Source: Escherichia coli
Lineage (GTDB): Bacteria; Pseudomonadota; Gammaproteobacteria; Enterobacterales; Enterobacteriaceae
Direction: 5' to 3' (one strand)
Length of the DNA: 64,000 nucleotides
NCBI RefSeq assembly: GCF_029227855.1
Contig: NZ_CP074357.1
Below, one piece after another: positions 9,001 to 15,000 of this stretch. The position numbers are program-made. Numbering within the stretch: position 1 is the stretch's first letter; each line of letters begins with the position of its first letter.

Positions 9001-12000
9001 TTGGTCAGCCAGGGCTATGAAGCGGAAGTGGCTGAACAAAGCAATGAACTCAAAACGCTCCAGGCCAAAGTAATGAAGCTGGAAGCTACCCTGGAGGCGG
9101 AGAAAACAATCTCAGAATCCCTAAAAGGCACCATTGATACATTAACTGGTGCAATGGCAGGGGGAGGTACTGGAAAGTCAAAACAGCCGCGTAGCAGAAA
9201 AACATCATGATAAATGAAGCCAGGTTGATACACTTCTCTGCATCCCCTGGCACATAAGAACTTCTGCGGACATTCAGCCCGTCCGCAGGAGTTTTCGTCC
9301 TTCAGTCAACAAATGCACTACCTTTTTTGAGTCTCCACTTTCCAGAGCAGAAAACACGTTACCGATTCTACCAACAGCTTGTATCTGAGTGATAACCCCA
9401 GTCTTGTAATCATCTAGGATCCCTGACAGGAAAGCGTTCAGTTTTGTCTGTTCGCTTAGCGAAAGCATGTAGGACATTTTTTCTCCATTTTAAGCAGGTG
9501 TGTCAGTTGAAAGAGGTTTGCGTGATTCTGGAAAATGAGGCAGCACCATAGTTTCAGATGCTGTGGTCGCATCCCAGTGCCACCATCCATAAGGCCCATA
9601 TTCACGGTTGTAATAATCTTTTTTGAGTTGCTTTCGGGCCAGATAAGCAGGAGTGGCCATACCAAATACTTCCATCGGGAACGGCTTATCGCTTTTTGTG
9701 TCGAGCAGGTAGAAGTCAGGGAACACCTCACTAATACTCGCATCATAACGCATGGGCTTAACGTACTGCCGGTGCTCTGCATCCAGCTTTTCTGCAACAA
9801 CCGCCTCATAGGAGGAGTCCAGAGGTATCCAGTTCTCGCTAACGTGCATCAGCACAATTTGATGAGCTCTTACAGAAGGGCCTCTGCCGGTTACCGCAGC
9901 TGGTGACGTCAACGCAAAGACAACTATTTTCGCCCCGGATTTCCATGCTGCGTACTCCGATGAAAATCGTTTCTTTACGCTATCCCAATGGACTTCTGAA
10001 TTGAAAAAAATCAGCGGTAGCCCCCCAAAATTCCGCAGGGGTAAAAATTTAAGTGGCTTCTCATGCTTTTCAGCATCGTAGCGAGGTAAAACTGACAGGA
10101 GCATGAGACGTTTATCACTCATCGCCTGTGATGAAAGACGCTGAATTTGCGACTGAGCGACAGGTTGTTTCGGGTCAGGTACACCAATGAATAAATGGTC
10201 ACCTATGCAGGCTCTGCCGGTACGAATTTGTTTAGCGGTTTCAAGCAGACGATACCGTACCAGTGAATCGTTACGTTTCCCTGCCATTTTCGGGTACCAG
10301 ACATTCAGACCAGACTCTGTCCACAAAAGACTAAGCAAGCCCAGGAGGGTCATTGAGGCCTGACCTCCTTCTGGTCGCTGAACATGGGGCAGGGGAGGCA
10401 CTTCTGATTTTTCAGGAGGATCTTTCTCTGTCATACCGATACCGAGCCTTACAGCCATATCACCTTCGGTTGTAATCCGGACCACACCACTCGCATATCC
10501 TTTCAGGCCGGTATGCCGGGCATCAAGGGAGAAGAATACACAGGAAGGATCATGCTCAATGCCCGTGTTAGCGGCTTTGACGAGAATAAAGGCATCACCG
10601 TTCGGTAAAGCACGAACATAAAGTCGCTTTTCTCCTTTTCCACGACATCCGCAGGTGATGACTGATTTTTGACCTGAGGTGTGGTGTGCCTTTTTAAGAG
10701 CCGACTGCCACCCTTTAGCAAACTCATCCTGCGTTTGAAAGTCAGGTGAATACCTTTTGACGTTTGGATCGTCGTCGTAAGCAATCATCACTGCGAATTT
10801 TTGGCTCATAGTAGTCTCCTAAACAGGAAGTTTAATATCCCAACCAGAGCAACACTTCCTGAGCGTCATACTGTTCCTTTACGCCCATGTCGCTAAAGAA
10901 TTCTTCGAAATCTGTTTCGGGAACGCAATGCCTGGACAGTTCTTGTAATGCTCGTTCTTTAGATACCGTCTCACCTTCAGCTGATTCGAAATACGTCATG
11001 GTTGACCTCTGACATTATTACAACAATCTTAAGCATTTAAATTGATGAAGGAGCTCAGGTCAGCTGACTTCGTCGTAAAACTGCCGCAAGCGCTGGGAGG
11101 CTGCAAATTCAATTCGTGACTTCAGCAGTTTGGCGACGGCCGCAAAGACATCAACGACCACGGAGTTCCCAAACTGTCTGTAAGCCTGTGTATTGGACAC
11201 AGGGATACGGAAAACACTTTCCCCGGGTTTATCGAAGCCCATTAGCCTGCTGCATTCACGTGGCGTTAGCATGCGTGGCCGACGGTCCATGTTGTATGTG
11301 TTATGGAAATCAGTTTCTCCCAGTTCATGAGACCAGCCCCGATCAATAAGAATTTCAGATCCGTCTTTCATATAGCGGCTTGAGAGGGTTCTGGTGACAC
11401 TATTAACATTGGAAGGATCTACTAGTCCAAAACCAAAACCATTGCCTTTTGCCGCATGTTTCTTTGCATAGTTGTATAAGTACTCCCAGAGTTTAGGGGA
11501 GAGGATGTATTTACTATCTACGCTCGGATCCAGTAAATCTGAGAGAGAAGGGCGCTTGTCCGGATAAAAGTCTTTAATGTCTCTCAGAGTAAAACCGTCT
11601 TTCAGACGTAGGTCGCGGCGAAAACCAATAAGGACGATACGTTCACGGTGCTGGGGTCGGAAATGACGGCCATCGATGACTTTAGGATCATCCGCGCCCG
11701 TGCTTTCGCTGTTTGCGACGTCGTAGCCAAGCTCATCGAGCGTTTTCATGATGATGTTAAAGGTATTACCCTTATCGTGACTCTTCAGATTTTTTACGTT
11801 TTCCAGAACAAAAATTGCAGGTTGTTTTGCCCGGATGATCCTGGCCACATCAAAGAAGAGCGTACCCTGAGTGTCGCACTCGAAACCGTGTTTGCGACCC
11901 ATAGAGTTCTTTTTACTGACACCGGCGATGCTGAATGGCTGGCATGGAAATCCCGCAAGAAGAACATCATGATCCGGGATAGAGGCATCGATAAATTTGT

Positions 12001-15000
12001 ATGCCTCGTCATCAGTAACCTCGGGCCGGTTGCTAAGAGTGATGTCACGGATGTCTGAATTGAAGCGGTGCTCGTTCTCATCGCAATACCAGTTCGCCCG
12101 GTAAGTACGGCTGGAATAAGTATTCCATTCGCTCGTGAAAAGACATTTACCACCGATGGCATCAAATCCGCTTCGCAGTCCACCTATCCCTGCAAACAGA
12201 TCGATAAAGCTAAAGTGCCTGTCCTCATAATCAGCAGGTCGTGAAGGTATTAAAGTCTGTAGATAGCGTCCATCTGCGATACTCAGCTCACAATGCTCAG
12301 GTATGCATGTAACCTGACGTTTAAGGGATGCACGGGACCAATTACTGCCATTTTCATCATTTAATACCTGAGCCAGATATTTCAGGTCATAAATGGTCGA
12401 AGCTGTTAACAAAGTTTTGTGGATCAGAGATGGTGTTTTATCCACATCATTCAGGTCTGTCTCAAGATCATGAGTGTAACGTTTCATCCAAACTCTCTCA
12501 GGAATAATATCTTTGAGATAGATTAACACGCTTAATTTGGATTATTTTTTGGTTCAGGTTCTAAATTTATTGTGATTATTCTGCCTTTAAGTTGCAAAAA
12601 GATTGGTTTTAAGCCCGCCCATGAAATAATGACTTGTTAAAATACTGCCTGTAAATAGGCTTGTGGATACATGTCTGTACTCAACAAATCAAGGTGAAAT
12701 GATGTTTTTTTTAACAAAGTTACTTTTGCCCATCATGATTGTTGTATTCCCAGTGGCGTCCTGGGGGAACTCAACAACTTTTGAGGCAAAGGTGGTTAAG
12801 ATTGTTGACGGTGACACCATAACTGCGTTGGATGCTCAAAACACAACCATCAAAATACGGATGTATGGTATAGACGCTCCTGAATCTAAACAGGCTTTTG
12901 GCCAAAAAGCAAAACAGGCCTTAACCACAGCTATAGCAACTAAAATCGTTACCGTGATAGACCATGGTACGGATATCTATGGCCGTATGTTAGGTACCAT
13001 CTGGTTAGATGGATATGATATCAATGCCTCTATGGTGGACAGTGGATATGCGTGGGTTTATCGGTTCGAAGATAACGCCATTGTCCCTGGCTATATCAAA
13101 TATGAATCCGCAGCACAAAAGGAGGCAAAAGGGTTATGGGCAGACACCAACCCTGTCCCACCATGGCAGTGGAGACAGGCAAACGAAAAGCCCAGAAAGG
13201 TGAAAGAGAAGAAATAACCATGATGAAAGAGCCTCATCCGTTACTTCAGTTGGTACTAAACGATTCCGGTCGTCTAACCATGCCTGTTTATTATAGAGAT
13301 CAACAGTATTGCCCGACTTGCCTTACAAAGGTGTTGAAGAGTGAGGATGGAAGTTTGGCGCACCTCGGGGAAATAAATCAAAATACATGTAGACCTTCTA
13401 TTTCAGTAGTTGTGACAAAAGCAATTATTGAAATGTTATGTGACGGGGAAAAAATATATGTAAATCCAATACGACACCGAGGCCGGGTGCTGGCACCCTC
13501 AGTAATTTTTTCTCCCGACACTCACACTTTCAAACCGTTTATAAATACAGACTATCAGCCTGTGGGAGCAAACTGGAAAAGTGAAAAGGGATATAAACTC
13601 GGTCTGTTTTATCTCAAAGATCGAGCCAACTCTATCAATAAAGAGGAATTTGATTTCATTGCCGTTATAGACCCTGAGGCAATGCAGAAAGAATTTATTT
13701 CGGCCTGGTCTGAGGTTGATGAAAAAAATCCATTGGAAACGCTGAAGCAGATCTTACGATCTAAAAACAACTCTTCTTTATGGGTAAAATGGCCTGGCAA
13801 AATTGAGCATGCGCAAAAAGGAAATTACAACGAAAATTACTGGTTCGATTATCAATCTGATAATCAGGAAGTGAACTGTACGGTCTCTGTTGTAGGTATC
13901 GAAGGTAACAGTTCCGGTGAGACAATTTATAGATTGCAAACTTTGCTAAAGCGTAAGCTCAATGAATATCAACTGGTTCGGTCTTTAGGGACTATTATGC
14001 TTCTTGATAATACCGGGAATATGATTCCATCAAACCATCCTTATTTTGAAGTCATCTCAAAAGCATGTATAAATGGAGTGCGTGACTTTGTTCGTCAAAA
14101 CCCGTGGGTAGTCTGACGGTCAACTATAAAGCATAATATAATTAGTAATAACAAGGAACAGACATGAATGAAAACTCAGTAATCTTAATAAGTTTATTTT
14201 GGTTTTTTTTGGGATCGAGTGTTGTAGCTGGTTTTATGGATGCATCATTATATTGCTGGATTTTTGCAGCCATAAGCGCATTGTTTCTTCTTTCGGTGAT
14301 ACAAACACCAAAGGAGTTAACGGTATCTATTAGTCATATGACAAGCAAAACGCTGATCTCAAAGACAGATGATGGATACACATTTAGCATTTCACCTTAC
14401 GGAGACGGGTACCGCTTATCAGTCTCGCCTGAAAATCGTCACAATGGTACCCAAAGCTTTGACGGCTGGTTCCCACGTTTTTTTTCCGAACCACAGTATG
14501 CCAAATCATCTTTAACTAAATTTCTCGGTGAGTCCTTAGTATGGGAAGAAGATTCAAGTAATGCTCTATGAGATTACTTATTATAAATTTTTCTATTAAT
14601 CTCCATGGAGTGATATATGAATTTGGCCTATTTTTTATTTTTGTCTATAACTGTTATGCTTACGAGCTTTATTATTAAATCACTTGTCGTATTGGTAAAG
14701 TTCAAATTACTTCGTGATGAACGTCTCGAATATACCAGCAATAAAAATATTGATGAGATGTACGATTTAATGAATGCGAAGGAAGAAATCCTCATAAGGC
14801 ATCATAAGCAGATGTTGGCATTGCATCTTTCACTATTAATATTCGTTCTATTTATTGCTTACATTTACTAAAAATAATTTTATTCAACATTTCAACAAAG
14901 GGTTTTCAATGGAAAGCTTCGAAACTGAACAAATGATTCAATATGCTTTCTACATAAATATCGTAATAACGACTGGTTTGGCATGGTTTTGCTTGCGGTC

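Follow-up and report, generated by a model that had tools for sequence, protein, structure and literature searches.

A solitary methylase of the Dcm type has been studied on the large conjugative resistance plasmid pKAZ3 (IncA/C), where deletion of this orphan dcm gene raised EcoRII restriction about 2,700-fold; in the same study, every large plasmid tested carried at least one orphan methyltransferase (PMC11602122). The protein family DUF1173 (Pfam PF06666) was predicted in 2011 to have a CxC...Hx3-5C zinc motif in its N-terminal part and, at the C terminus, a domain related to PD-(D/E)XK nucleases but without their canonical signature, and its function was left open (Laganeckas et al. 2011, PMC3045609). 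Here we describe a locus in which a Dcm-type methyltransferase gene heads a row of four co-oriented genes, the third of which encodes a DUF1173 protein. It lies at positions 9274 to 12487 of a 64,000-nucleotide stretch of Escherichia coli DNA (contig NZ_CP074357.1 of assembly GCF_029227855.1), called the window below. The first-pass annotation of this window, made by a model from the sequence, had offered three readings of the locus: a restriction-modification-like system with an unrecognized effector, a methylation-coupled defence island, or an orphan anti-restriction methylase with passenger genes. The last of these fits best, with pKAZ3 as a precedent, and we consider it likely that the locus is IncHI plasmid backbone in which an orphan Dcm-type methylase, with a probable anti-restriction role, stands beside three functionally independent genes.

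The four open reading frames (ORFs), their common orientation, and the gaps of 60 bp (methyltransferase to orf55), 22 bp (orf55 to DUF1173), and 12 bp (DUF1173 to orf67) were all found as first annotated:

11060 to 12487, minus strand: DNA cytosine-5 methyltransferase, 475 amino acids from the ATG chosen by PGAP; orphan Dcm family, predicted CCWGG specificity (RefSeq WP_000833382.1).
10832 to 10999, minus strand: orf55, a small acidic protein of 55 amino acids, isoelectric point (pI) 4.2 (RefSeq hypothetical protein WP_000220758.1).
9490 to 10809, minus strand: DUF1173 family protein, 439 amino acids, with a zinc motif and a PD-(D/E)XK-like C-terminal domain at about residues 325 to 415 (RefSeq WP_000078514.1).
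9274 to 9477, minus strand: orf67, a small basic ORF of 67 amino acids, last of the four genes; probably real and lineage-restricted.

The methyltransferase scored 845.7 bits against the NCBIfam Dcm subfamily PRK10458 (cut-off, 710) and 336.8 bits against TIGR00675 (cut-off, 100.65). Its top model among the PADLOC defence models (PADLOC-DB v2) was "orphan methyltransferase," the others being generic methyltransferase models. As had been judged by eye at first pass, the protein is collinear with E. coli Dcm and M.EcoRII: it shares their length, domain order, and catalytic motifs, and it aligns with K-12-type Dcm at 65% identity over 438 residues with zero gaps. The motifs FAGIGG, PCQPFS, ENV, QxRxR, and GNSV (within FGNSVVV) are all intact, and the alignment remains gapless through the target-recognition region (residues 260 to 420) between motifs VIII and IX. 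Because this gapless similarity spans the specificity region and the motifs are intact, the enzyme very likely recognizes CCWGG. A GTG at 12529 provides an alternative start, from which the protein would have 489 amino acids.

Unlike chromosomal dcm, whose end is overlapped by vsr by 20 bp in E. coli, the plasmid gene has no overlapping vsr and is followed by orf55, and unlike M.EcoRII, it has no ecoRIIR partner. Indeed, no Vsr homologue was detected in the whole window (tblastn, best E = 0.2), and no restriction enzyme model of NCBIfam or PADLOC matched any adjacent gene, the rest of the 200- to 300-kb plasmid not having been searched for an EcoRII-like gene. Within this scope, the absence of both partners reported at first pass was borne out. 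The plasmid enzyme is thus comparable to the orphan Dcm of pKAZ3, both being solitary Dcm-type methylases on large conjugative resistance plasmids with the same expected role, although pKAZ3 belongs to another plasmid family and the likeness is one of role, not of sequence comparison. A literature search turned up no functional study of the IncHI2 methylase.

CCWGG is over-represented in the window, with 202 sites compared to 116 ± 12 expected from shuffled sequence, a rough baseline given the mixed composition. Since the sites are not avoided, an unmethylated copy of the plasmid would be a rich target for EcoRII. We propose that the methylase would modify CCWGG at its inner C, both in the plasmid, whatever the donor, and in the donor chromosome, and that, on entry into a cell with an EcoRII-type restriction system, the approximately 200 CCWGG sites per 64 kb would already be protected. 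The enzyme could also blunt post-segregational killing by EcoRII-like selfish restriction-modification systems, and a regulatory role of its methylation is possible. Orf55, DUF1173, and orf67 would be plasmid genes that share a transcription unit with the methylase in IncHI backbones, their function not being tied to it.

The 439-amino-acid protein, in which no motif had been named with confidence at first pass, was identified by Pfam search as a full-length DUF1173 protein (E = 5.7e-39, residues 26 to 393). It is the same in kind as the described family, with the zinc motif (C53/C55/H86/C90) in its N-terminal part and the nuclease-like domain at its C terminus. Residue conservation, computed over 179 diverse DUF1173 members, was as follows:

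C53, C55, H86, and C90 (predicted zinc ligands): 99 to 100% conserved.
K351: 99% conserved.
D370: 97% conserved.
R347: 97% conserved.
E335: 95% conserved.
E380: 86% conserved.
D365 (the textbook "PD" aspartate): 84% conserved.

The position of the (D/E)xK lysine is occupied by F or Y in DUF1173, and K351 and D370 are conserved at non-canonical positions, so that the active site is possibly an atypical one. The segment FPDFYLLDTK had been flagged as a weak PD-(D/E)xK-like pattern. This held in so far as the segment is the PD strand of the nuclease-like domain, with D365 as the "PD" aspartate, but not for the lysine of its DTK, which is not conserved, whereas D370 is. An AlphaFold2 model built from 33 homologues was confident (pLDDT 88.9, pTM 0.89), and its C-terminal domain has the core alpha-beta-beta-beta-alpha-beta fold of the PD-(D/E)XK superfamily. 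The guess of such an element in this protein was therefore right at the level of the fold, in agreement with the 2011 prediction (PMC3045609). No solved structural relative was found for the N-terminal two-thirds, whose middle region has no recognized fold, and a profile search of the whole PDB sequence set returned nothing (best E = 1.5). Among the PADLOC models, DUF1173 gave only an 18.5-bit, 87-residue match to the candidate PDC-S68 (E = 8e-5).

Relatives of DUF1173 are present on 3,315 of the 72,556 plasmids in PLSDB (about 4.6%), 73% of which are predicted to be conjugative, and the family forms 2,531 clusters at 50% identity in a large protein library that includes metagenomes. Our literature search found no functional study beyond the 2011 prediction. 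New for this family are the confident AlphaFold2 model, the confirmation of the fold, the conservation of E335, K351, and D370 at 95 to 99%, the N-terminal two-thirds without a solved relative, and the plasmid distribution. DUF1173 is best described as a predicted cytoplasmic zinc-binding protein with a C-terminal restriction-endonuclease-like domain, carried by mobile elements, and our best guess is that it is a DNA-binding or structure-specific nuclease acting on plasmid DNA in maintenance or establishment.

A methylase gene followed on the same strand, after short gaps, by a gene for a protein with a PD-(D/E)XK fold has the layout of a restriction-modification system, classical or atypical, in which the Dcm-like enzyme would be the cognate protector against restriction by DUF1173. 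In keeping with this reading, the IncHI-like clade has the conserved acidic residues E335, D365, and E380, and the linkage of the two genes is kept across IncHI relatives. In every IncHI-like locus examined, a gene for an unassigned protein of about 300 amino acids and the SNase gene stand on one side, divergent from the methylase gene, which is followed by an orf55 of 55 to 59 amino acids and DUF1173; convergent coiled-coil and DUF4942 genes then close the block. In the window, the flanking genes are as follows:

12702 to 13217 (start 12699/12702), plus strand: SNase/thermonuclease gene with a signal peptide, product secreted; divergent from the methylase, with SNase-type matches in NCBIfam and PADLOC (RefSeq WP_001572389.1, thermonuclease family protein).
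8005 to 9210, plus strand: coiled-coil protein gene, about 400 amino acids; convergent with the operon, RefSeq hypothetical, SMC-like coiled-coil matches only.
7190 to 8008, plus strand: DUF4942 gene; convergent with the operon, RefSeq annotation, part of the IncHI backbone block.

The secreted SNase-like nuclease gene reported as divergent at 12699 is thus present. The same block was found in the following places:

Photorhabdus replicon: IncHI-like block, DUF1173 identity 82%.
IncHI1A plasmid: IncHI-like block, DUF1173 identity 81%.
Second E. coli plasmid lineage: IncHI-like block, DUF1173 identity 78%.
Several contigs: IncHI-like block, DUF1173 identity 52 to 64%; three of them also with Ter, VWA, or kinase genes.

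This conservation is backbone synteny, which alone cannot show functional coupling. Outside IncHI-like backbones the linkage is gone. In 34 of 35 genome loci with a DUF1173 of 23 to 41% identity, there was no Dcm-like methyltransferase within 10 kb, the single exception having, at a distance of 6 kb, a C5 methylase of weak similarity. Similarly, no methyltransferase of any class was found in the annotated or Pfam-labelled DUF1173 contexts (Klebsiella, Pseudomonas, Acinetobacter, Burkholderia, Enterobacter elements, and one metagenomic contig). In sister Klebsiella Ter plasmids, the SNase gene and DUF1173 diverge across only 182 bp, and there is neither methylase nor orf55. The linkage on which the candidate module had been built is therefore a property of IncHI-like backbones only.

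Natural knockouts exist in both directions. The methylase frame is interrupted by IS1203 in p2009_36_HI2 and by a 62-bp insertion in SA22019p_295K; it is in fragments through an internal deletion in the Photorhabdus replicon, and in the second E. coli lineage an IS3-family element splits it, at the same site in all three places examined. Each of the four cases retains intact orf55 and DUF1173 genes. The contig collection lists, in 186 of its blocks, the orf55 protein through which the second E. coli lineage was located. Conversely, an IS21 lies inside DUF1173 in pMCR_915_C1, with the methylase intact.

Distribution, knockouts, and the missing signature thus contradict a restriction-modification system. 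The family occurs as a solitary gene on the 3,315 plasmids; the four dead-methylase cases are independent and include a whole plasmid lineage and the Photorhabdus replicon; the (D/E)xK lysine is missing, as had also been reported (PMC3045609); and no restriction endonuclease model of NCBIfam or PADLOC matches. We regard this reading as largely refuted and as the least credible of those considered here: DUF1173 is very probably no restriction enzyme whose sequence-specific cleavage the methylase would restrain. A restriction-modification-like system with an unrecognized effector is likewise not supported, since DUF1173 genes occur elsewhere without a methylase and each of the two genes is found intact with the other one broken. 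The proposal of a methylation-coupled defence island fares no better, as no PADLOC model covers DUF1173 save for the weak domain-level match to PDC-S68 and the linkage is limited to IncHI-like backbones.

We also weighed DUF1173 as an analogue of Vsr, that is, a mismatch endonuclease that would be co-expressed with the plasmid Dcm and replace vsr in repairing the T:G mismatches arising from 5-methylcytosine deamination at CCWGG. The dcm gene upstream of it has no vsr, the best fold matches of DUF1173 include Vsr, and the pattern PDF-hh-D...h-E-V-F-G resembles PDFVV...IFTHG of Vsr. Vsr binds zinc. DUF1173 is also predicted to bind it (PMC3045609). However, the profile comparison was not significant (hhalign probability, 0.6%; blastp E = 30); the positions of Vsr His64 and His69 are not histidines in DUF1173, in our reading of the local match; and the zinc motif sits in a separate N-terminal domain. 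Furthermore, DUF1173 genes with a cytosine methylase nearby are a small minority, and the gene is kept where the methylase is dead. DUF1173 also differs from Vsr in being three times larger and in having a gene that does not overlap dcm. Homology to Vsr, suggestive at the fold level, failed in the profile comparison and was rejected, and a functional analogue is very unlikely.

The small protein encoded between methylase and DUF1173 is shared by all IncHI-like loci at 40 to 64% identity, with a pI of 4.2 to 4.9 and the invariant C-terminal pattern SAEG...FF...YD.Q..L.W.GY. It had no match in Pfam, NCBIfam, or PADLOC. At least 144 relatives were found, some of them without a nearby methylase or DUF1173: they lie near korB/parA in Yersinia, beside an integrase in Acinetobacter, and within an F-type tra operon in Pantoea, in each case without DUF1173 and without an adjacent methylase. 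The Yersinia locus has a methylase of weak similarity on the opposite strand, at a distance of 3.6 kb. On account of these relatives, orf55 was rejected as a methylase-specific partner.

The most interesting alternative is that orf55 and DUF1173 form a module of their own, independent of the methylase, in which orf55 would be the inhibitor or partner of a nuclease in a nuclease-immunity or toxin-antitoxin-like arrangement serving plasmid stabilization, defence, or anti-defence. In IncHI-like loci, orf55 always lies directly upstream of DUF1173, at a constant spacing of 22 to 27 bp, whereas the methylase-orf55 junction varies from −4 (a 4-bp overlap) to a gap of 180 bp. Both genes are intact where the methylase is destroyed, a possible internal promoter lies ahead of orf55, and orf55 is strongly acidic. 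The acidic residues of the nuclease-like domain are conserved in most DUF1173 members, and the match to PDC-S68, weak as it is, would suit such a module. On the other hand, there is no orf55 with the DUF1173 of the Klebsiella, Pseudomonas, Acinetobacter, Burkholderia, and Pantoea contexts, just as orf55 relatives occur without DUF1173 in the three genera named above. A DUF1173 disrupted by an insertion sequence (IS) is tolerated, many K. pneumoniae plasmids carry it in two pieces, and neither protein matches a known toxin-antitoxin or defence family. We therefore hold an effector-inhibitor pair to be unlikely. A more far-reaching form, in which DUF1173 would be an active zinc-dependent nuclease of new architecture (two N-terminal domains without a solved relative and an atypical site formed by E335, K351, and D370) and, together with orf55, a new plasmid effector-inhibitor module for establishment, anti-defence, or exclusion of competing DNA that was placed under the promoter of the Dcm methylase in IncHI, seems to us decidedly unlikely.

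The two-piece DUF1173 was seen in six K. pneumoniae plasmid records, including those of liver-abscess isolates. There the match is limited to 69% of the query and DUF1173 carries two annotations, which points to a pseudogene persisting in a plasmid lineage that is itself successful.

Several points weigh against the preferred reading of an orphan anti-restriction methylase beside independent genes. The knockout evidence is weakened, and does not decide the matter by itself, because a chromosomal dcm, which enterobacterial hosts usually carry, could replace the lost plasmid methylase if the specificities match; among complete E. coli genomes, 5,365 of 5,426 have a dcm homologue. About 98% of IncHI2 records have the methylase and DUF1173 both unbroken, and IncHI relatives share the synteny of the block, so that some coupling within the lineage remains conceivable. 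The constant spacing between orf55 and DUF1173 hints at a real pair in the IncHI-like lineage. The screen of the 35 loci used a Dcm-like query, other methylase classes having been checked only in the sampled Pfam-labelled or annotated contexts. Finally, CCWGG is assigned to the enzyme from its similarity to Dcm, and co-transcription as well as the promoter and terminator sites are read from consensus matches only.

These sites are the following:

12626 to 12655, minus strand: promoter-like site upstream of the methylase, in the 211-bp divergent intergenic region shared with the SNase gene; consensus match only.
11014 to 11041, minus strand: promoter-like site with an extended −10 (TTTAAA-16-TGtAATAAT), inside the 60-bp gap between methylase and orf55; consensus match only.
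9264 to 9288, minus strand: terminator-like hairpin with a 9-bp stem of 6 G-C pairs and a weak T-tract, overlapping the stop codon of orf67; consensus match only.

The hairpin is possibly the end of the transcription unit, and the site at 11014 to 11041 is a possible internal promoter ahead of orf55. Promoter-like sites were no more numerous across the region than in shuffled sequence. Shine-Dalgarno sequences were clear for DUF1173 (AGGAG) and orf67 (GGAG, 6 nucleotides upstream) and weaker for orf55 (AGAGG); the sequence ahead of the PGAP start of the methylase was less convincing. Orf55, DUF1173, and orf67 are probably transcribed with the methylase or from an internal promoter.

Like orf55, orf67 had no match in Pfam, NCBIfam, or PADLOC. 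By similarity, it was found only in IncHI2 and in Photorhabdus, being absent from the other IncHI-like loci compared. The two versions are 70% identical, with 27 synonymous versus 20 non-synonymous codon differences. The IncHI2 RefSeq records examined do not annotate it, and an IncHI1A plasmid record annotates a 204-bp ORF that agrees with it in length and position. On these comparisons, orf67 is probably a real, lineage-restricted gene.

The locus itself is annotated, very common backbone of IncHI2 resistance plasmids and was already known. Its 4.3-kb segment is present at 99 to 100% identity in about 1,130 PLSDB plasmids from Escherichia, Salmonella, Enterobacter, Klebsiella, and Citrobacter, and the records examined among them are 200 to 330 kb long and typed IncHI2/HI2A, MOBH, and MPF_F. 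As a segment of a heavily sequenced resistance-plasmid family whose methylase fits the picture of an orphan anti-restriction enzyme, the locus adds little. The wider value lies in DUF1173, which is widespread and pairs a nuclease-like fold with a zinc site conserved throughout; a clear phenotype would inform the maintenance or establishment of large resistance plasmids.

At most 5 of the 35 genome loci had a neighbour family of DUF1173 in common; what recurred as "families" proved to be shadow ORFs that overlap DUF1173 itself, so that no conserved neighbour was found. On unrelated plasmids, DUF1173 recurs beside rep, par, resolvase/integrase, and umuDC/Y-family polymerase genes, and in Acinetobacter it directly follows a zeta-toxin family gene. 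The methylase and orf55 look inserted between the SNase gene and DUF1173 in the IncHI lineage, or else they were lost in the Klebsiella sister lineage. The DUF4942 and coiled-coil genes form an overlapping pair that is kept with the block in every IncHI-like locus, and in Klebsiella grimontii a DUF4942 gene lies 2 kb from DUF1173. A literature search turned up no functional study of DUF4942.

Positions 7136 to 23322 of the window are collinear with plasmid pSTM6-275, the synteny starting directly ahead of the DUF4942 gene. Positions 1 to 7135 are a resistance insertion that is not in the otherwise collinear pSTM6-275 and that contains the following:

8 to 760: lnu(F).
2075 to 2938: SDR oxidoreductase.
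3690 to 4481: sul3.
4897 to 5400: IS1 transposase fragment.

A repeat of high GC content (about 64%) is present in three copies in the window, at 17868 to 19653, 23357 to 24907, and 44153 to 45005. The third is located beyond the stretch from 14001 to 39000, which contains the first two and matches records with floR, tet(A), and ISVsa3 annotations. The three are probably copies of one mobile element.

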